A stretch of 51,590 nucleotides of DNA from Candidatus Micrarchaeia archaeon (GTDB lineage: Archaea; Micrarchaeota; Micrarchaeia; Burarchaeales; JAVZCV01), in assembly GCA_038874215.1 (NCBI GenBank), contig JAVZCV010000005.1:1-51590 (forward strand), in the 5' to 3' direction. The translations under genes and the position numbers were made by a program. Within the stretch, counting starts at the first letter, position 1, and the number at the start of each line of letters is the position of its first letter. The notes beneath the pieces are model-generated. The model searched no databases. It was not told where the DNA came from and saw nothing but the letters and a program-made list of their open reading frames with translations. Below are positions 40,128 to 50,486 of the stretch, in pieces.

Positions 40128-41612
40128 TCAAGAACTACTTTTTTCCTCACCTGTCTCGACCCAATTTTTAATGAACTCTTTAAGTTTCTCCCTTTTTCTT
40201 TCAAGTTCAATTTCATCCTCTTTTATCTGTTCTATTCTCTGGGTTATTTCTTCGCCTTTTCTCTTTCCTTCCTCACCCTTGCCGATTATCTCAAGCAATT
40301 CAACCTCCTTTGAAAGAAGCGCCACCTGCCTCGTTATCCTTTTGCGCTCTTCTTGCATCTCCTGTATCATTCTTTCTATCTCATCTCTTTTCTTTACTAT
40401 ATCCTCAAAACGTGCCATCGTTTCTCCTACTATCCTGAGCTCATCTTCTATTCCCTTTTTGCTTGCTTCAATGTCGTCTTTTATTGCCTTTTCTATATTA
40501 CTCGCCTCTGCCAGCTCCTCACTATATCTTGATTTTAGATTTGCAAGGTCCGCCTCATACCGCTGAAGCGGTATTAGGAAACCGCTCTCCTTTAGCTCCA
40601 TAAGGGATTTGTACTCTATCTCCTGCTCATCTATGACTTTTACCAGTGTCTTTACACGTTCAAGCGCGAGTTTATTCTCATCGTTTATTTCAGATGCCAT
40701 CTTCTCAAGTTTTTTCATATCCTCCTCCAATACTCCTATCTTCTCTCTTATTACCCCCATATCCGAATAGACCTTTTGTTGTTCTTTTATGGATTCCATT
40801 ATCTTTTTGGAGCGTTCTATCAATTCTTGCAGAGAATTTTCAACCTCAACTCTCATCTTGTTTATCCTTTCAATGCTCTGCTCTGCTGCTTTGCTGTCTG
40901 CTATTGTTTTCCTTATCTCCTCCTCCCATGCTTTATACTCCTTCATTTTTCCTTCTATCTCTATCTCTTTCTCAACAAGCTTTGCTTCTATTTTTTCCAC
41001 ATCCCCTTTTATCTCCTCAAGTTTTGCAATTTCTGGCTTAACAGCTTCTGCTTGTGCGTCAAGTTGCTTGAGCCTATCATAAATCTCAGAAAGCCTTTTT
41101 TCATCAAGTGCTATCATGTCCCCTACAGTATTCAACTCATTCTTCATTTTATCAAGCACCGAAAGACGCTTTGCATACATCTCCTCTCTCTCTTTTTCAA
41201 GCATCTTCAGTGCGTCAACTCTTCTCCTTATACTCTCCATTTTAGGGTCAAACAACCTAGCAATCTTCTCAAACTCTCGTTGTATCTCATCAAGTTCCTT
41301 CCCCTTAGAGCTCATTCTCTCAAGTATGGACTCCAGATCTCTGGTAAGCACCTCCCGTTTGTCTCTCAACTCCTCTATGATCTTTCCCATTTCTTCCTCT
41401 GTCTTACCAATCCAGACAAGGTAGATTTTTGTTAGCTGGTATTCTATCCTTATCAGCCCTTCCTCTTCAAGAACACGTGCCCAATCCTCAAGCGCCATCG
41501 GGGAGGTTCCAAGTTCCTCAGCTGCTTCGCTAAGTTCTACTTTCCCCTTGCTTCGTATGAGTTTTATCAGACTGTCAACACCTGTGCTTATAAGTAATTC
41601 ATCCAGAGGCAC
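40128..41612 (-). CDS. N-terminal winged-helix plus long coiled-coil protein
   Basis: LSEAAEELG...EDWARVLEEEGLIRIEY wHTH, then about 420 aa of heptad-like E/K-rich helix; GTG start after GGGTG. Confidence 0.75.
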   Translation of the reverse strand: MPLDELLISTGVDSLIKLIRSKGKVELSEAAEELGTSPMALEDWARVLEEEGLIRIEYQLTKIYLVWIGKTEEEMGKIIEELRDKREVLTRDLESILERMSSKGKELDEIQREFEKIARLFDPKMESIRRRVDALKMLEKEREEMYAKRLSVLDKMKNELNTVGDMIALDEKRLSEIYDRLKQLDAQAEAVKPEIAKLEEIKGDVEKIEAKLVEKEIEIEGKMKEYKAWEEEIRKTIADSKAAEQSIERINKMRVEVENSLQELIERSKKIMESIKEQQKVYSDMGVIREKIGVLEEDMKKLEKMASEINDENKLALERVKTLVKVIDEQEIEYKSLMELKESGFLIPLQRYEADLANLKSRYSEELAEASNIEKAIKDDIEASKKGIEDELRIVGETMARFEDIVKKRDEIERMIQEMQEERKRITRQVALLSKEVELLEIIGKGEEGKRKGEEITQRIEQIKEDEIELERKREKLKEFIKNWVETGEEKSSS

Positions 41613-41736: not shown

Positions 41737-43131
41737 ATGGACCTACCTCTTGATGCAATTGCAATAAAAAAAGAAAAAGGGCCTCTTGACAAATTCAAGA
41801 ATCAAAGCACCATAATAAACATATACGGGAATACAGGGCTTCGGATATATCTTTGGATTGATAACCAGACAACCATAGGGGAACTTATGGAAAGAGCACA
41901 GCTACCAAAGGAAAAGTTTTTGGAAATCATGTGGTTCATGATTGACAGTGGTATCGTAACCCTATCCTATAAAACGTCTGCAGTGGAAAGCAAGCTCCCC
42001 GAGGCCACTCGCCCTCCGATAGCTTCATACCCTCCCACGCAGGAAAAACAACGAACAACGGAACCTCCGAAACCTGCTGAAAAAATAGAACCGCCGCACC
42101 CGGCACAACTTCCCGAAGTTGAACGCACACCTCGTCTTCCTCCACAACCGCATGTTTCACAGGAAACACCACCCTCCATTACCGAATCTGTGCCAGCACC
42201 GCCTGAAAAACAAGTTTCCAAACCAGCTCACAAAGAAAAAGGTACAGTGATACCCCCTGCCCCAATGCCAAAGCCTATTGCCGGTTTAGAGCGATTTCCT
42301 GCCGGAGAAAGCGAGGTTGCACCAAAAACAACACCGTCCAACGTAGAAAACGGAACACCCCAACATGTATCAAAAGAACTTTACGAAGCCCCTAAATTTG
42401 AGAATCCCCTTGAAGAAAAGATATACCAGAAATTTGGGCCAATAGGAGTGAAGGTTTACAACGCAATAGATGGGGAGAAAACAGCCCAAGAAATACTCAA
42501 AGAAACAAAAATAACAGAGGAGTATCTTGTAGAGATACTGGAGTTCTTAAACGATGAAGGCATAATACGCCTTGAAGTAGAGGAGGAGACTCCTCAGGAG
42601 AAGCCCAAGGAGATTACAGCGTTGGGGGGAGAAGCAGAACCTATAAAGCCCATACATAAGCCAATAAAGAGGCCAATGAGTGTCCTAAATGAAGCTATGG
42701 TAAAAGCCGACCTTATGCTAAAATTCAAAGGTAGTGCGAAAGTATACTCTGCGATTGACGGCAAGCGTAATATACTCCACATATCAAGAGAAACAGGAGT
42801 ACCGATTACAGAAATAGACAACATAATGAAATACCTTGTTGAAAAAGGTGCAATAACACTTGAACCCTTAACACCGCACGAAATCCAGTACCTATACGGG
42901 CATGAAGGTCTAAAAATATACTCCACGTATGGTAGAGACGGCATAGTCCTGTATGAACTTATTGACAGTAAGGCCAGCATAAAGGACATAGTCATGCAAA
43001 CGGGCATAGAACCAGAAAAAGCAATAGATATATTCCTCTTTATACATCGCCTTCTCGGCATAGAGATGCCCATAACACGAGAGATGCTCATGCGGCAATT
43101 CAAAGAAGCAATCCTCACCTCAGAGCAATAA
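41737..43131 (+). CDS. Protein with four winged-helix-like repeats and a Pro-rich linker
   Basis: Repeated G.[KR][IV]Y..ID...[TNS]...I.......E....I...L...G.I.L units; disordered Pro-rich segment at about residues 85-220. Confidence 0.75.
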   Translation: MDLPLDAIAIKKEKGPLDKFKNQSTIINIYGNTGLRIYLWIDNQTTIGELMERAQLPKEKFLEIMWFMIDSGIVTLSYKTSAVESKLPEATRPPIASYPPTQEKQRTTEPPKPAEKIEPPHPAQLPEVERTPRLPPQPHVSQETPPSITESVPAPPEKQVSKPAHKEKGTVIPPAPMPKPIAGLERFPAGESEVAPKTTPSNVENGTPQHVSKELYEAPKFENPLEEKIYQKFGPIGVKVYNAIDGEKTAQEILKETKITEEYLVEILEFLNDEGIIRLEVEEETPQEKPKEITALGGEAEPIKPIHKPIKRPMSVLNEAMVKADLMLKFKGSAKVYSAIDGKRNILHISRETGVPITEIDNIMKYLVEKGAITLEPLTPHEIQYLYGHEGLKIYSTYGRDGIVLYELIDSKASIKDIVMQTGIEPEKAIDIFLFIHRLLGIEMPITREMLMRQFKEAILTSEQ

Positions 43132-44417: not shown

Positions 44418-44936
44418 TCAGAGATACCCCAAATATCTCTCAACACTTGCCAGCGTCTTAAACCCCAAAGTCTTTTTAAGTGCGTGCAGGTCCCGTGTTT
44501 TTCTTATAAAATCAATAGCGAAAGCATGCCTGAGGTCCGCGGGACTTATCTCCCTTCCTACGCCGCTCCTATTTGCGTGCTTTTTTACTATCTTCTGTAT
44601 TTGCCTATGTGTCAGCGGCCCTTCTCTGCCAGAAAAAACGAAAGTCTCCTCACCCAAAAAATCCTCATCCTTCCTGCGCTCCTCTATAAATTTTGCTATA
44701 ATGGGCAGCATCGCCTTTGATATGGGCACCCTTCTAACGAACTTACCGTTATTCACTTCTATTACTTCTTGTGAAAGGTCTATGTCTTCTACGCGTAGAT
44801 TCGCAACTTCGCTTGTTTTCAGGCCGCATTTGCACATGAGAGCCAGCAAAAGCGCATCCCGTGTGGAATGGGACTTTGCAGAATCAAGCAGCTTCTTCAC
44901 TTCTTTTTTGCCAAGCAAACCCATACCCATCCCCAT
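44418..44936 (-). CDS. Xer/integrase-family tyrosine recombinase catalytic domain, degenerate
   Basis: RDALLLAL...GLKTSEVANL..EDID, RRVPI, SPADLRHAFA and LGF.....VERY; no N-terminal core-binding domain. Confidence 0.8.
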   Translation of the reverse strand: MGMGMGLLGKKEVKKLLDSAKSHSTRDALLLALMCKCGLKTSEVANLRVEDIDLSQEVIEVNNGKFVRRVPISKAMLPIIAKFIEERRKDEDFLGEETFVFSGREGPLTHRQIQKIVKKHANRSGVGREISPADLRHAFAIDFIRKTRDLHALKKTLGFKTLASVERYLGYL

Positions 44937-44974
44937 TCAAATAAAACCATAATATAGAAAATAAGGGAAAAAGT

Positions 44975-45097
44975 TTATATTACGGTTATTTCTACCTCCA
45001 GAAATTTTGAGGAGGCGAGAATTTCAAGAGCCTTCGCTATCTTCCTTTCAAGCATTTTGAGTTCTTCCTCATCTTCTCTAGTGAATGTTATTTCCAC
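44975..45097 (-). CDS. Putative 40-aa microprotein (MEITFTREDEEELKMLERKIAKALEILASSKFLEVEITVI)
   Basis: Below the ORF-track cutoff; GTG start preceded by AGGAGGGGTG and a TTTAAATA box; amphipathic helix. Confidence 0.5.
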   Translation of the reverse strand: MEITFTREDEEELKMLERKIAKALEILASSKFLEVEITVI

Positions 45098-45143
45098 TTC
45101 CCCCACCCCTCCTAATAAATTTATACCAAAACTCATATTTAAA

Positions 45144-45171
45144 TATTCGCATATTAAAAATTATGCGAACT
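45144..45171. repeat. 28-bp imperfect inverted repeat with 11-6-11 dif-like layout (TATTCGCATAT TAAAAA TTATGCGAACT)
   Basis: TTCGCATA/TATGCGAA perfect inverted core; flanked by TATA-like boxes on both strands. Confidence 0.6.
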
Positions 45172-45253
45172 TATAAAATACAACATTCTTCAAAAATGTT
45201 CTGAGAATAACATCAGCTTTATATCTTTGCGTTATGCAATTCTCTGCGATTTT

Positions 45254-46351
45254 ATGTTCCCTGGCGAAGAAAAGAAAAAAACGAATGCGGTTCTCGTTTT
45301 AAGCGACGGCACAGTTTATTACGGAATGGGCGTCGGCGCAGAAAAAACAGTTTCAGGAGAGCTCGTTTTTACAACTGGCATGGTGGGATATCAGGAAGCG
45401 CTGACAGACCCCTCATACAAGGGCCAAATCTTAACTTTCACGTACCCTCTTATAGGAAACTATGGAGTAAATTACGAGGACTTTGAATCTGAAAGAATAC
45501 ATGCGCTCGGCGTGGTTATGCGCGAAGCATGTCCTGCACCCTTCCATAGCAAACTTACAAAAACGATTCACGAGTTTCTGGTTGATTTTGACGTACCAGG
45601 CATATCCGAGGTAGACACGCGTGCCATAGTAAGAAAAATACGAAATTTTGGCGTGATGCCTGCATCGCTTTCCGTATATACGGGCGAGGCGGACATAGGA
45701 GAGTTAATAGAGCGCGCAAAAGCCGTGGACTATTCCTCATTTGATTTTGTTAAAGAAGTTGCATCAAAGAAAGTTGAGGAATATTTCGCAAAAAATGAAA
45801 AGAAACGGGTTGCGCTCATTGACTGCGGTTTGAAAATGAGCATAATAAGAGAACTTGTGGCAAGAGGAATAAGTGTTACAAGCGTCCCGCCCACGATGTC
45901 TGCAAGAGAGATTTTAGGAAGAAAACCCGACGGTCTTGTTGTTTCAAACGGGCCAGGAGATCCAGCAAGGCTCGGATACATTTTTAGGACTATAAGAGCG
46001 CTTGTACCAAAGATGCCCTATATGGGGATTTGCATGGGCCACCAACTCCTCGCACATGCAATAGGCGGGAAAACATACAAACTAAAGTTCGGGCACCGGA
46101 GCCTGAACCAGCCAGTAAAGGATATGAGAACGGGTAAAGTTTACATAACAGCCCAGAACCACGGTTTTGCTGTTGATGAGAAATCACTGCCCAAGGGCTG
46201 GGGAGTTTCGCATATAAACTGCAACGATAAGACGGTTGAGGGCTTATGCCATGAGGAGCTCCCTGCATTCTCCATTCAATTCCACCCAGAGGCAAACCCT
46301 GGCCCGCTCGACACGAGGTACCTGTTTGATGAATATATAAAAATGCTGTGA
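45254..46351 (+). CDS. carA: Carbamoyl-phosphate synthase small subunit
   Basis: GELVFTTGMVGYQEALTDPSY, SNGPGDP, GICMGHQ and QFHPEA. Confidence 0.97.
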   Translation: MFPGEEKKKTNAVLVLSDGTVYYGMGVGAEKTVSGELVFTTGMVGYQEALTDPSYKGQILTFTYPLIGNYGVNYEDFESERIHALGVVMREACPAPFHSKLTKTIHEFLVDFDVPGISEVDTRAIVRKIRNFGVMPASLSVYTGEADIGELIERAKAVDYSSFDFVKEVASKKVEEYFAKNEKKRVALIDCGLKMSIIRELVARGISVTSVPPTMSAREILGRKPDGLVVSNGPGDPARLGYIFRTIRALVPKMPYMGICMGHQLLAHAIGGKTYKLKFGHRSLNQPVKDMRTGKVYITAQNHGFAVDEKSLPKGWGVSHINCNDKTVEGLCHEELPAFSIQFHPEANPGPLDTRYLFDEYIKML

Positions 46352-46361
46352 GGTGTTGTGA

Positions 46362-47261
46362 ATGAACCTTCTCGGAATGGGGGACCTTTCCAAAAAGCAG
46401 ATTTTTGAGATACTGGACATTGCAGAAAGAATGAAAAAAGAAGAAGATTTTGGGAAGCCGCTTTCGGGCAAAACTCTGGCAATGCTTTTTGAAAAGCCTT
46501 CAACGAGAACGCGCGTCTCGTTTGAAGTTGCCATGGCACAACTTGGCGGTCATGCAATCTACCTTGACTTTGTAGGTACTCAGATAAGCCGCGGTGAGAC
46601 GATGGCGGACACTGCACGGGTGCTCAGCAGATATGTTGATGCAATAACAGCGAGGCTTTACAAGCACGCCGATTTGGAGGAGATAGCACAAAACTCAACC
46701 ATACCTGTCATCAACGCTCTCACAGAGTTGGAGCATCCATGCCAAATTATCGGAGACCTCCTAACAATAAGAGAGAAAAAAGGGGAGTTTGAAGGGAAGA
46801 AAATCGTTTTCGTTGGAGATGTGGCATGCAACGTTGCCAACTCTCTGATGATAGGTGCCGCTACAGTAGGCATGGACGTCACTCTCGTGGGACCGATTGG
46901 GGCATTCCCGCCGAATAAAAAAATAGTCCAGCTGGCAAAGAGGAGGGGAAAAGTTGAGATTACAGACCAGCTTGAAGGCGTTAAAGATGCAGACATAGTT
47001 TATACTGATGTATGGGTCAGCATGGGTTTTGAAGCAGAAAGGGCGGAGAGGCTCAAAGCGTTCGTTCCATACCAGGTTAACAAGAGCCTCATGAAGAGGG
47101 CGAAGAAAAACGCAATAGTTATGCACTGCTTGCCTGCCCACCGCGGCTTGGAGATAACATCTGATGTGCTTGACAGCAAGCAGTCTGTTGTTATAGATCA
47201 AGCCGAGAACAGGCTCCATACAGAAAAGGCGCTTCTGCTCTACCTTCTGTGTAAAAAGTAG
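46362..47261 (+). CDS. argF: Ornithine carbamoyltransferase
   Basis: FEKPSTRTR, HPCQ, DVWVSMG and HCLPAH (OTC-specific). Confidence 0.96.
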   Translation: MNLLGMGDLSKKQIFEILDIAERMKKEEDFGKPLSGKTLAMLFEKPSTRTRVSFEVAMAQLGGHAIYLDFVGTQISRGETMADTARVLSRYVDAITARLYKHADLEEIAQNSTIPVINALTELEHPCQIIGDLLTIREKKGEFEGKKIVFVGDVACNVANSLMIGAATVGMDVTLVGPIGAFPPNKKIVQLAKRRGKVEITDQLEGVKDADIVYTDVWVSMGFEAERAERLKAFVPYQVNKSLMKRAKKNAIVMHCLPAHRGLEITSDVLDSKQSVVIDQAENRLHTEKALLLYLLCKK

Positions 47262-47279: not shown

Positions 47280-50200
47280 ATCCCGAAGCGCGAAGACATA
47301 GAGAAAGTGCTGGTGATAGGAAGCGGACCGATAGTAATTGGGCAGGCTGCCGAGTTTGACTATTCAGGCTCGCAGGCATGCACAGCACTTCGTGAAGAAG
47401 GAGTTCAAGTAGTGCTCGTTAATTCCAACCCAGCAACCATACAAACTGACTTGGACATCGCAGATATCGTATACATAGAGCCTCTCAAAGCCGAATTTTT
47501 GGAGAAAATAATTGAGAAAGAAAGGCCGCAGGGGCTTATAGCAACGATGGGCGGCCAGACAGGTCTCAACCTCGCAGTAGAATTGGAGAGAAAGGGTGTG
47601 CTTAAGAAATACGGGGTTGAAGTCCTTGGTACGGGTATACAGGCAATAAAAGAAGGAGAGGACAGAGACCTTTTTGTAAAAGCGATGGAAAGAATAGGGG
47701 AGCCTGTCCTCAAAAGCATTGCTGCAACGAGCGTAGAGGAAGCGCTTGAATTCGCATCCAAATACGATTACCCGTTTATACTCAGGCCAGCCTACTGTCT
47801 CGGCGGTACGGGCAGTTCCGTTGCGCACAGCAAAAAGGAGCTCATTGAGAAGATGGAGTTCGGCCTTCGTTTAAGCCCAGCCCATCAAGTTCTCGTTGAG
47901 CAGTGTGTCCTCGGTTGGGCCGAGATAGAGTATGAGATGGTGCGTGATTCTTACGGGAACGCCATCACTGTTTGCAACATGGAAAACATAGACCCCATGG
48001 GGATACACACAGGAGACAGCATAGTAGTCGCTCCATCACAGACGCTTTCGCAGGACGAATACCAGATGTTGCGCCATGCATCCCTAAAAATCGTCTCAGG
48101 CCTAAACATATGCGGAGGCTGCAACATACAATATGCGCTCAATCAGGAAACTGGCGAATATTACGTAATTGAAATAAACCCTCGTCTTTCGCGGAGCTCA
48201 GCCCTTGCCTCCAAGGCAAGCGGATATCCTATTGCGCGCGTTGCGGCAAAGGTTGCGCTTGGCTTCGCTCTTGACGAAATACCCAATGCGATAACCAAGA
48301 AAACGCCAGCTTCATTTGAGCCAGCGCTTGACTATGTGGTTGTGAAAATACCACGCTGGCCCTTTGACAAAATGCCAGAGGGTGATAGGCACATCGGCAC
48401 GCAGATGAAGGGCACTGGCGAGGTAATGGGAATAGGGAGAACTTTTGAGGAAGCGCTCCAGAAGGCGATAAGGAGCACCGAGATTAGAAGGGAATTCGGA
48501 GATGGGAAGCCGCTTAAAAGTTGCAACGACCTGCGCGACTGCCTGAAAAATCCCACCGATGAGCGAATATTCGCCATTTACGATGCCCTTAAGCAGGGTA
48601 TGAGCGTGGAAGAAATCGTAGAACTCACAAAAATAAACCCATGGTTCATAAGAAAAATTCTTAACATAGTTCGGATGGAACAGCGCCTACGGACAGAGAA
48701 ACTTGACGAGAACCTGATGAGGGAGGCGAAGAGGCTCGGCTTTTCTGACAGGCAAATAGCGATGTTCACAGACAACCAAGAAACTGCAGTAAGACGGGCG
48801 AGGAAAAAAATGAACATAAAACCCGTATATAAGATGGTTGATACATGCGCTGCAGAGTTTGAGGCAAAGACGCCTTACTACTATTCAACATACGAGAGCG
48901 AGTGCGAGGCCAATCCGAAGAAAATAAAGAAGGTGATAGTTATAGGGGCGGGACCGATAAGGATAGGGCAGGGAATAGAGTTTGATTATTGCTGCTGCCA
49001 TGCAAGCTTTGCGCTTAGGGAAGCAGGCGTGCAGTCAATAATAATAAACAACAACCCCGAAACCGTTTCTACCGATTTTGACGCCTCCGACAAGCTCTAC
49101 TTTGAGCCTCTCACATTTGAGGATGTAATGAACGTGATAGAGCGCGAGGAGCCAGACGGCGTCATAGTGCAGTTCGGCGGGCAGACGAGCATAAACCTCG
49201 CAGTGCCTCTCGCAGAAGAAGGAGTTACCATTCTGGGAACGCAGATATACGGAATAGACATAGCAGAGGACAGGGAGCGCTTCCGCCAACTTCTGAAAGA
49301 CCTTGATATACCCCAGCCTGCCAACGGAACCGCAAAAAGCGAGGATGAGGCTCTTGATGTTGCAGAAAAAATCGGCTATCCAATAGTTGTTAGGCCCAGC
49401 TATGTTATTGCGGGCAGGGCGATGGCAATAGTGCCGAACGAGGAGGAGCTGAAGAAATACATAACCGAAGCTGTTGACGTGAGCGAGAAGCGCCCCGTGC
49501 TGATAGACAAATACCTTGATAATGCAATAGAATGCGAGATTGACGGAGTTAGCGATGAAAAAAGGCTTTTCATAGGGGGCATAATGGAGCATATAGAAAA
49601 GGCTGGCGTTCACTCAGGAGATGCAAGTTGCGTTACCCCTCCCCTAAACCTGAGCGAAAAAATCCAGAAGCGGATAGTTGAATATTCAAAGAAAATAACA
49701 TTTGCTCTCAGGAACATAGGGGCAATAAACATCCAATACGCTGTTCAGAACGATACCGTCTATGTTCTTGAAGCGAACCCCCGCGCGAGCCGAACAATAC
49801 CATACCTAAGCAAGGCGACGGGCATACCCCTTGCGAAGGTTGCAACGCGCGTTATACTCGGGCAATCACTTGAAGAACAGGGGCTTTATGAAACTCCTCG
49901 GCTTCCATACTACGCAGTGAAGAGCGTATGCTTCCCATTCCTAAAACTGCCCGGCGTTGACCCTGTTCTCGGCCCAGAAATGAAAAGCACGGGAGAAAGC
50001 ATGGGCATAGATGCGAATTTTGGCATGGCATACTACAAATCGCTTCTTGGCGCTAACATGAACATTCCGCTAAATGGCCGTGTGATAATAAGCCTCAGGG
50101 ACAGCGATAAGAAAATGGCGGGAAAGCTGGCAGAAAGTTTTGAAAAGCTTGGTTTTAAGGTAAGCGCCACGAAAGGGACTGCGGCATATATAGGCGGCAA

Positions 50201-50486
50201 CATTGAGATACTCAACAAGCTTGATGAGCAACCGCCAAACATGCTATCAAAAATCAGGGCGAAGGATGTGCAACTCATAATAAATACGCCATCAAAAGGC
50301 AAACGCTCATTCACTGATGGGTTCAAAATCCGCAGGGCTGCCCTTGAAAGCAACATACCAATAATAACCACAATTGAGGCAGCGTTTGGGCTTGTAGGGG
50401 CACTAAACGCAGCAAAGGATACGGGGATATCCGTTTGTTCTACTAACGATTATCTAAATATACTAAAAAATATAAAAAATAAATAG
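47280..50486 (+). CDS. carB: Carbamoyl-phosphate synthase large subunit
   Basis: IGSGPIVIGQAAEFDYSG, duplicated ATP-grasp halves and MGS domain; the conserved (M)PKREDI N-terminus begins at ATC 47280. Confidence 0.97.
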   Translation: MPKREDIEKVLVIGSGPIVIGQAAEFDYSGSQACTALREEGVQVVLVNSNPATIQTDLDIADIVYIEPLKAEFLEKIIEKERPQGLIATMGGQTGLNLAVELERKGVLKKYGVEVLGTGIQAIKEGEDRDLFVKAMERIGEPVLKSIAATSVEEALEFASKYDYPFILRPAYCLGGTGSSVAHSKKELIEKMEFGLRLSPAHQVLVEQCVLGWAEIEYEMVRDSYGNAITVCNMENIDPMGIHTGDSIVVAPSQTLSQDEYQMLRHASLKIVSGLNICGGCNIQYALNQETGEYYVIEINPRLSRSSALASKASGYPIARVAAKVALGFALDEIPNAITKKTPASFEPALDYVVVKIPRWPFDKMPEGDRHIGTQMKGTGEVMGIGRTFEEALQKAIRSTEIRREFGDGKPLKSCNDLRDCLKNPTDERIFAIYDALKQGMSVEEIVELTKINPWFIRKILNIVRMEQRLRTEKLDENLMREAKRLGFSDRQIAMFTDNQETAVRRARKKMNIKPVYKMVDTCAAEFEAKTPYYYSTYESECEANPKKIKKVIVIGAGPIRIGQGIEFDYCCCHASFALREAGVQSIIINNNPETVSTDFDASDKLYFEPLTFEDVMNVIEREEPDGVIVQFGGQTSINLAVPLAEEGVTILGTQIYGIDIAEDRERFRQLLKDLDIPQPANGTAKSEDEALDVAEKIGYPIVVRPSYVIAGRAMAIVPNEEELKKYITEAVDVSEKRPVLIDKYLDNAIECEIDGVSDEKRLFIGGIMEHIEKAGVHSGDASCVTPPLNLSEKIQKRIVEYSKKITFALRNIGAINIQYAVQNDTVYVLEANPRASRTIPYLSKATGIPLAKVATRVILGQSLEEQGLYETPRLPYYAVKSVCFPFLKLPGVDPVLGPEMKSTGESMGIDANFGMAYYKSLLGANMNIPLNGRVIISLRDSDKKMAGKLAESFEKLGFKVSATKGTAAYIGGNIEILNKLDEQPPNMLSKIRAKDVQLIINTPSKGKRSFTDGFKIRRAALESNIPIITTIEAAFGLVGALNAAKDTGISVCSTNDYLNILKNIKNK

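Follow-up and report, generated by a model that had tools for sequence, protein, structure and literature searches.

A short Xer-like protein with a degenerate active site, and a nearby palindrome, in a micrarchaeotal genome

The archaeal recombinase XerA (Pyrococcus abyssi 4a8e and Thermoplasma acidophilum 5hxy; phmmer E 2.5e-21 and 2.8e-14) is the closest relative, in sequence and fold, of the protein described here. XerA without its alphaN helix is reported to lose recombination, not cleavage (PMC3646895), and an account of archaeal dif sites gives a TAA-N6-8-TTA core as their most conserved feature (PMC11840125). The other instructive case is MrpR (YopR) of the Bacillus subtilis phage SPbeta (PDB 8A0A), which has the tyrosine-recombinase fold, with Arg-I, His-II, Arg-II and His-III of the active site replaced and the Tyr kept, and which is described as a repressor with no recombinase activity (PMC10516654). 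The locus considered here lies in a 51,590-nt stretch of DNA, contig JAVZCV010000005.1 of a Candidatus Micrarchaeia archaeon (“the window”). Its Xer-like gene (44418..44936, minus strand) encodes a tyrosine-recombinase catalytic domain only, 172 amino acids as listed and probably 168 from ATG 44924, and a single-copy palindrome lies upstream. We give about even credence to the best explanation found, that the protein is a non-recombining, DNA-binding pseudo-recombinase and that the palindrome belongs to a pair of divergent promoters, each with a transcription factor B recognition element (BRE) and a TATA box.

The first-pass annotation had described a catalytic domain without an N-terminal core-binding domain and with three active-site residues replaced, and both points hold. 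The only Pfam match is to PF00589 (positions 3-166 of 172; E 1.1e-28, 100.6 bits against a cut-off of 27.1), with nothing N-terminal to it. In HMMER alignments to XerA chains 4a8e and 5hxy, Arg-I is replaced by Lys40 (GLKTSE vs. GLRVSE in XerA), His-II by Ala133 (HxxR reads ADLR) and His-III by Phe159 (LGH reads LGF), with Arg136 and Tyr168 kept, the latter aligned with the XerA nucleophile. Lys65 aligns with the first Lys of the XerA GKGxK turn, and lies in the beta2-beta3 turn of the structural model (strands 58-62 and 67-71). Of the active-site set K40, K65, A133, R136, F159, Y168, three of six positions are replaced, so that the full set is not present. The C-terminus comes 4 residues after Tyr168, where the aligned XerA chains extend for 19-31; by this alignment, the protein is without the C-terminal alphaN helix of XerA.

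What is left appears to fold well. The AlphaFold model has a predicted local distance difference test score (pLDDT) of 88.7, and its top Foldseek matches are to XerA 5hxy, with a template modelling (TM) score of 0.85 and a root-mean-square deviation (rmsd) of 1.7 A. The best NCBIfam model is NF040815 (recomb_XerA_Arch), but its score is 109.3 bits where the cut-off is 220, and of its 263 positions only 97-252 are matched; there is no full-length match to this XerA equivalog model, which covers core-binding and catalytic domains. The isoelectric point (pI) is 9.75, and lies between 9.3 and 11.0 in all 23 sequences tabulated. No detached core-binding domain turned up elsewhere: profiles for one (PF02899, PF13495, PF13102, PF14659) gave nothing over their cut-offs in the genome, which is 91% complete, and no gene for a SAM-like domain; the single recurring weak match falls in a tetratricopeptide repeat (TPR) protein. 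Nor was a separate intact xerA found, a point the first pass had left for checking: the Xer-like gene is the only PF00589 match in the genome, an absence that falls short of proof at this completeness. Because the three substitutions are combined with the loss of both the core-binding domain and the alphaN helix, the protein is, as far as its sequence can tell, probably non-recombining.

Homologues 31-42% identical to the window's protein share its architecture and its loss of Arg-I. Frames of 174-236 amino acids, 32-40% identical in that comparison, were found in genomes G018, G015, G021 and G006 (family f7; 38-42% identical) and in G005 (family f6; 31%), with two more distant short forms in G012. 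Searching 1.84 billion representatives with a profile brought in P0021, P0024, P0042, P0047 and P0092, and an earlier homologue search P0002; the profile also turned up short proteins whose active site is intact. Metagenome contigs gave no match to the protein when it was used singly as the query. In the genomes sampled, the degenerate family is confined to one order of Micrarchaeota. It was counted as 15 short degenerate proteins of 143-185 amino acids. Arg-I is never Arg in these (11 have K, 3 have T and 1 has S), and Arg-II is Arg in 15 of 15. The other positions vary: His-II is H in 3, N in 8 and something else in 4; His-III is H in 7, Q in 6, F in 1 and L in 1; the Tyr position is Y in 10, L in 4 and A in 1; and the Lys of the beta2-beta3 turn is present in 8 and absent from 7. 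Members from loci L003 and L006 are without the turn Lys, which their closest kin from L004 and L005 have. This drift of the turn Lys and the Tyr argues that catalysis is not the function under selection. The eight intact short forms keep Arg-I, Arg-II and His-III in 8/8, His-II as H in 7/8 and Tyr in 7/8; the eighth, without the Tyr, is P0076, which is truncated and was left out of the tree.

Is the gene simply decaying? The ratio of nonsynonymous to synonymous substitution rates (dN/dS) is 0.047-0.100 in 5 of 10 f7 pairs, at dS of 1.4-4.1, which is near saturation; the other 5 pairs gave no estimate. Selection was thus measured in the f7 subfamily and not on the window's gene itself. With dN/dS in f7 far from the value near 1 that had been named as the sign of a pseudogene, and with the loss of Arg-I common to the homologues, the gene is better seen as maintained. 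A recombinase fold, lost catalytic residues and purifying selection (the last shown for f7) are the combination by which an MrpR-like protein would be recognized, and all three are found here.

Within the class, 22 of 41 genomes have a PF00589 match, for the most part in a frame of about 400 amino acids. Phylum-wide, the family profile matches 7 of 251 genomes at E<=1e-18: four have the short form, all in the window's order, and three have frames of 265-294 amino acids. With 244 of 251 genomes lacking an Xer-like match at that threshold and only three having full-length-like frames, a Xer/dif system is not a general feature of the phylum, and chromosome dimer resolution by Xer seems to be the exception in these small genomes.

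Several further observations concern the family and its surroundings. The f7 orthologue is flanked by a small membrane protein gene and an AP_endonuc_2 / TauE / glutaredoxin group, an arrangement kept across two genera. At three loci in two genomes (G005 and G012), the short Xer-like gene directly adjoins a same-strand gene for a HEAT/PBS-lyase-type repeat protein: L007:1038-1460(-) in G005 (PF13646), and L010:2-1450(+) and the gene beside L020:1498-1926(-) in G012; a HEAT-repeat protein is a possible partner. Four proteins of 314-347 amino acids (P0025, P0028, P0030, P0034), two of them labelled Candidatus Woesearchaeota, have two tandem degenerate catalytic domains and no core-binding domain, each matching the family profile in two stretches; to judge from these matches, another DPANN lineage seems to have this kind of domain in the form of a fused pseudo-dimer. 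P0071, from a 7-member cluster, is a full-length Xer-like protein of 265 amino acids with an N-terminal domain, in which Arg-I is K, His-II is N and LGH reads LSY; by its residues and architecture, it may stand midway between XerA and the short degenerate proteins.

The palindrome, TTCGCATA-N8-TATGCGAA (45146..45169, unstranded), is intergenic, lies 210 bp upstream of the Xer-like gene, has a perfect core, and occurs once in the genome. It is present as first described, a 28-mer (45144-45171) that can be read as 11-6-11 with arms complementary at 8 of 11 positions; as an inverted-repeat pair it extends to 16 nt at 81% complementarity. Such a palindrome is not in itself improbable: the 1.13-Mb genome has 420 perfect inverted repeats with 8-nt arms and spacers of 0-12, compared with 303, 319 and 415 in three simulated first-order Markov sequences, so that this frequency class is at chance level.

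Both arms of the palindrome end in GCGAA, 0-1 nt from a TATA box and at the position of a BRE. On the minus strand, TATTTAAA (45138..45145) directly follows the GCGAA of the left arm, and is the putative promoter of a micro-ORF (open reading frame) that lies between the palindrome and the Xer-like gene, and possibly of the Xer-like gene as well. On the plus strand, TTATAAAA (45171..45178), one base past the GCGAA of the right arm, would be a distal TATA-like box. A proximal TATA box, TTTATATC (45218..45225, plus strand), lies 29 nt before the carA ATG at 45254; because relatives (loci L074-L082 and others) have TTTAAAT boxes at this position before their carA genes, it is likely to be the core carA promoter. 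The Xer-like gene may also have a promoter of its own: a TATA-like octamer, TATATTAT (44950..44957, minus strand), is found 13-33 nt upstream of its three in-frame ATGs, and is a possible candidate. The source genome (G000) has a positional A/T signal at -30 to -23 of its genes, and TATA hexamers are 4-8-fold enriched upstream of them, TTTAAA most of all (7.8-fold). GCGAA followed by a TATA-like motif is seen at about 7 intergenic sites in G000, and 4 f7 orthologues share, without variation, a promoter in which GCGAAG immediately precedes TTTA. The first-pass annotation had offered two back-to-back BRE-TATA promoters as a caveat; it is the reading now favoured. A scan of the region against Rfam gave nothing relevant, and scans for sigma-70 promoters and terminators nothing above shuffled sequences.

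The window's minus strand and the f7 orthologue promoters can be aligned without gaps as GCGAA-NN-TTTA-N14-TATAA, a pattern that is unique in the genome but was picked post hoc. An nhmmer profile built from the f7 promoters does not have the window's site among its 412 matches at E<1000, and since a profile from f7 alone misses the site, shared promoter homology with f7 is not claimed.

The first-pass proposal that recombinase, microprotein and dif-like palindrome may form a module did not survive comparison: the micro-ORF is an orphan, the palindrome is not kept, and the orthologues sit in other contexts, none of them next to carA. Around 7 orthologues, loci of 2-3.5 kb contain no related inverted repeat. 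None of 25 relatives has the palindrome upstream of its carA gene; four have scattered single-mismatch half-sites 57-113 nt apart. Across the 28 other genomes of the order, a search allowing <=2 mismatches gave 6 sites in 5 genomes, vs. 5 in a reversed-pattern control.

As a chromosomal dif site, the palindrome has the general form: an imperfect 11-6-11 inverted repeat, single copy and intergenic. The archaeal pattern is absent, however, with TAA-N3-TTA in place of the TAA-N6-8-TTA core, and the site is not conserved among related genomes, only G005 sharing the exact core. By hand count, the 28-mer agrees with the Thermococcus kodakarensis dif sequence given in PMC11840125 at 14 of 28 positions, which is unremarkable for AT-rich palindromes. 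The dif reading of the first pass is accordingly not upheld. Elsewhere in G000, the archaeal dif-core pattern was found at two intergenic ATATAA-N6-TTATAT sites (C6:5177 and C9:7275), which fit the core better than the palindrome does; they look like AT-rich promoter DNA, and were rejected as dif.

Among 400 other genomes of the phylum, 3 contain the exact core, TTCGCAT-N10-ATGCGAA, vs. 0 for the control, the rough expectation from base composition being 1-2; two of the three copies are in G+C-rich, coding-like DNA. The third is in G005, whose sole PF00589 match is the short degenerate Xer-like gene. It is a perfect 9-6-9 palindrome, TTCGCATTT-CTCACA-AAATGCGAA (L101:124-147, on G005:C15), which matches the window's site in its 14-nt core and in the spacing of that core. 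After the right arm comes C-G-TTTAAATA; this arm again abuts a TATA box, and the gene downstream encodes a CbbQ-like AAA ATPase (CbbQ/AAA_5). No TATA box adjoins the left arm. The link is post hoc and concerns two genomes. It keeps alive the idea, suggested by the shared sequence, that the palindrome may be a discrete element, perhaps read by the short Xer-like family. Counting against this idea, the f7 genomes have no such site beyond the control, though their proteins are closer to the window's than is that of G005.

The preferred explanation, a DNA-binding pseudo-recombinase with divergent promoters close by, would run as follows. The Xer-like protein would be a stand-alone catalytic-domain pseudo-recombinase that has kept the XerA catalytic fold and a strongly basic surface, its family being under purifying selection for something other than strand exchange; by analogy with the repressor MrpR, its most likely activity would be DNA binding without recombination. 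The palindrome would be the core of two divergent archaeal promoters, each arm supplying a BRE-like GCGAA that abuts a TATA box. The minus-strand promoter would drive the micro-ORF and perhaps the Xer-like gene, the plus-strand one would be a distal promoter ahead of carA, and the palindrome may double as an operator for some factor.

A number of points tell against parts of this explanation. In Cre, the turn Lys and the Tyr are given as the only residues strictly required for >5% of wild-type activity, R173K recombines in vivo but not in vitro, and H289A and W315F are both active (PMC2943603). Each of the three substitutions in the Xer-like protein, taken alone, is thus compatible with some activity in that enzyme as described there. 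Both strictly required residues, Tyr168 and the turn Lys, are retained, and on this analogy some residual cleavage or topoisomerase-like activity may persist. In the tree, one branch splits the degenerate forms from the intact short and full-length forms, but the groups are defined by the trait being counted and the branch has support of only 93/68, which makes it weak evidence. On the DNA side, GCGAA is not the generic BRE of G000: of 138 strict TATA matches, only 1 has it in the preceding 10 nt, a zone that is merely A-rich. The symmetry of the arms also continues 3 nt past GCGAA, and the G005 copy, as a sequence, would fit a discrete cis-element better than two chance BREs.

Another possibility, held tentatively and clearly less probable than not, is that the protein is an autoregulator or local regulator: a dimer of the catalytic domain would bind the palindrome and control the divergent micro-ORF/xer-like and carA promoters, much as MrpR acts as a repressor. 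Archaeal repressors usually sit at the BRE position, and the palindrome overlaps that position for both TATA boxes. The protein is basic, MrpR provides a precedent, and arms of 8-9 bp around a spacer of 6-8 bp would suit the contacts of a lone catalytic domain; G005 has the same core before another promoter, together with a family member. The distribution of the site speaks against it. The orthologues are unlinked to carA, neither the 7 orthologue loci nor the carA promoters of the 25 relatives have a related repeat or site, and in the f7 orthologue promoters GCGAAG stands once, unpaired with any inverted copy. If the protein reads the palindrome, it is hard to see why G005, at 31% identity, should share it when the f7 genomes, at 38-42%, have none beyond the control.

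Two doubtful proposals concern the single-copy nature of the site. The first is a minimal Xer/dif-like system, in which the palindrome would be a resolution or anchoring site and the degenerate protein would act slowly or with help from the host. The palindrome is single copy in G000, the 14-nt core occurs once in G005 with a 6-bp spacer, and in both genomes the short protein is the only PF00589 match. A dif site beside its xer gene has precedents in XerS/difSL (PMC2731167) and in Haloferax and Halobacterium, where a dif-like site is described upstream of the xerA operon (PMC11840125); Tyr, Arg-II and the turn Lys are kept, and Cre R173K recombines in vivo. Opposed to this, the core-binding domain and the alphaN helix are both absent, and XerA without alphaN is reported not to recombine; no member of the family has Arg at Arg-I, and neither the required Lys nor the required Tyr is held constant. 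The site has no TAA-N6-8-TTA core and is not kept in the other family-bearing genomes. Its exact core, at 3 of 400 genomes, is near the rough expectation, two copies being in G+C-rich, coding-like DNA, and both promoter-side copies abut TATA boxes, which a dif site has no reason to do. The lack of an Xer-like match to the family profile (E<=1e-18) in 244 of 251 genomes of the phylum points the same way.

The second proposal, to which equally little weight is given, is that the pseudo-Xer protein reads TTCGCAT-N10-ATGCGAA as a landmark, present once per genome in two genomes of different families that have this short form as their sole tyrosine-recombinase gene, and binds it as a dimer with no need of a core-binding domain. 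If so, a stripped-down descendant of Xer/dif would mark or organize the chromosome, or resolve dimers very slowly, and would have persisted in a phylum that has otherwise largely lost Xer.

It is harder still to credit that the protein is a minimal but active enzyme, a recombinase or an invertase like FimB/FimE, whose sites would lie elsewhere in the genome. Recombinases of 167-203 amino acids with PF00589 only do exist (Atlas clusters named FimE-like), intact short forms were found here as well (P0035, P0067, P0083, P0109, P0128, P0163), and two models of tyrosine-type DNA invertases, NF007370 and NF007371, match the protein weakly. Those matches reach 43.2 and 35.3 bits against cut-offs of 221 and 222, however, and intact short enzymes keep the catalytic residues (Arg-I, Arg-II and His-III in 8/8 each) where here the active site is degenerate; there is no second copy of the palindrome to bound an invertible segment. 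Least probable of all is a decaying remnant, either a pseudogenized xerA or the C-terminal half of a split (suicidal) integrase from a mobile element: truncation at both ends and three missing catalytic residues suggest it, and split int(C) fragments are known in archaea (PMC8371274), but both assemblies have an intact frame, the structural model is complete and of good confidence, homologues at 31-42% identity have the same architecture with low dN/dS in f7, the neighbours are housekeeping genes in DNA of normal G+C with the nearest tRNA gene 21 kb off, and the best family models are Xer rather than SSV-type.

The window is contig C5 of a 1.13-Mb genome in 38 contigs. The guess that the host belonged to Micrarchaeota was right: its relatives are Candidatus Micrarchaeota metagenome-assembled genomes. 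A second, near-identical assembly of the region (a 6182-nt contig, run X1) differs over the 3 kb compared by 8 substitutions and 2 insertions, with the palindrome identical; only one of the substitutions falls in the Xer-like gene (K to R), too few for dN/dS. The insertions are of a single A each, behind 44932 and 44942, and throw the first two ATGs of the gene out of frame. Because of this, and because the gene call in that assembly (P0001) begins at the third ATG, ATG 44924 is probably the start, giving a predicted protein of 168 amino acids.

On one side the Xer-like gene is flanked by convergent trx-trxB, on the other by the divergent carA-argF-carB genes; G+C around it is normal, and the window's only tRNA gene is 21 kb away. 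carA (45254..46351, plus strand) opens its group, followed by argF (46362-47261) and carB (47307-50486); it is the divergent neighbour of the Xer-like gene and forms no conserved module with it. In Escherichia coli, ArgR and PepA are both Xer accessory factors and regulators of carAB; a connection with the present arrangement was considered, and rejected as a bacterial coincidence. Between the distal and proximal TATA boxes of carA lies a second inverted repeat, AACATTCTT-C-AAAAATGTT (45182-45200), with 9-nt arms and 1 mismatch. Relatives of family f9 (L074, L076, L077, L079) share a block in the carA promoter, TTTAAAT followed by TTTTGC..., CAATAG and usually GAG, which the window's TTTATATCTTTGCGTTATGCAAT resembles. 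By its recurrence, this block may be a conserved regulatory element of the arginine/pyrimidine operon.

The micro-ORF (44975..45097, minus strand) has 40 codons from a GTG at 45097 to a stop at 44975-44977, with GGAGG 10 nt upstream. The earlier description of it was partly correct: the 40 codons and the GGAGG are there, but it is not unannotated everywhere, an NCBI-source call of 40 amino acids existing for this contig. An alternative frame of 53 codons would begin at ATG 45136, with only 2 nt between it and the TATA box; of the two starts, the GTG of the 40-codon frame, preceded by GGAGG, is the plausible one. The product is acidic (pI 4.6), and a single-sequence fold gives one helix at residues 7-29, which is uninformative. 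No homologue was found when the order's 28 other genomes were searched (lowest E 0.09), and no Pfam or NCBIfam family or Atlas match to the product. A search of 5.8 billion proteins returned one cluster, made up of the contig's own 40-amino-acid call and the identical 53-amino-acid call of the second assembly. By these searches, the micro-ORF is an orphan.

Farther from the Xer-like gene, the window also encodes a 464-amino-acid protein (41737-43131, plus strand) that matches winged-helix families of the TrmB and HxlR types and has a long linker rich in proline, and, divergent from it, a highly charged, Glu/Lys-rich protein of 494 amino acids (40128-41612, minus strand).

The connection with dif gave this locus most of its appeal, and it is unsupported. 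What may be gained lies elsewhere. Should members of the family bind DNA, they would reveal how small a part of a tyrosine recombinase suffices for recognition of a site, and would offer a handle on genome maintenance in DPANN archaea. For annotation, such genes should not be named “site-specific recombinase XerD,” as one source does.

How does the Xer-like protein compare with what has been described? Like XerA, it keeps Arg-II, the Tyr, the Glu after Arg-I and the turn Lys; unlike XerA, it has lost the core-binding domain, alphaN, Arg-I, His-II and His-III, and no archaeal-type dif was found beside its gene. The Streptococcal XerD-like family (NF002685) is matched weakly (E 8.8e-14; 51.9 bits, where the cut-off is 178), and is bacterial and longer, its profile having 245 positions; its members are Xer paralogues that are not known to cut and rejoin DNA at dif. 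Short invertases of the FimB/FimE type, and other PF00589-only proteins of about 170-200 amino acids, are of similar length and single domain and include the nearest Atlas clusters by features (score 0.97), but they keep their catalytic residues, and the Xer-like protein is far below the invertase cut-offs. Some Crypton-derived genes of eukaryotes are said to reuse the recombinase fold, possibly as a plain DNA binder. The window's two outward TATA-like octamers, each preceded by GCGAA, resemble the divergent BRE/TATA promoters of archaea. MrpR serves as the precedent, with differences on both sides: it has core-binding and catalytic domains in 320 amino acids, is phage-encoded and bacterial, and binds repeated SPBRE elements, according to its description (PMC10516654), whereas the Xer-like protein is a single domain with Arg-II kept, chromosomal and archaeal. 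As far as can be told, a chromosomal archaeal family that keeps only the catalytic domain may be new to the literature.

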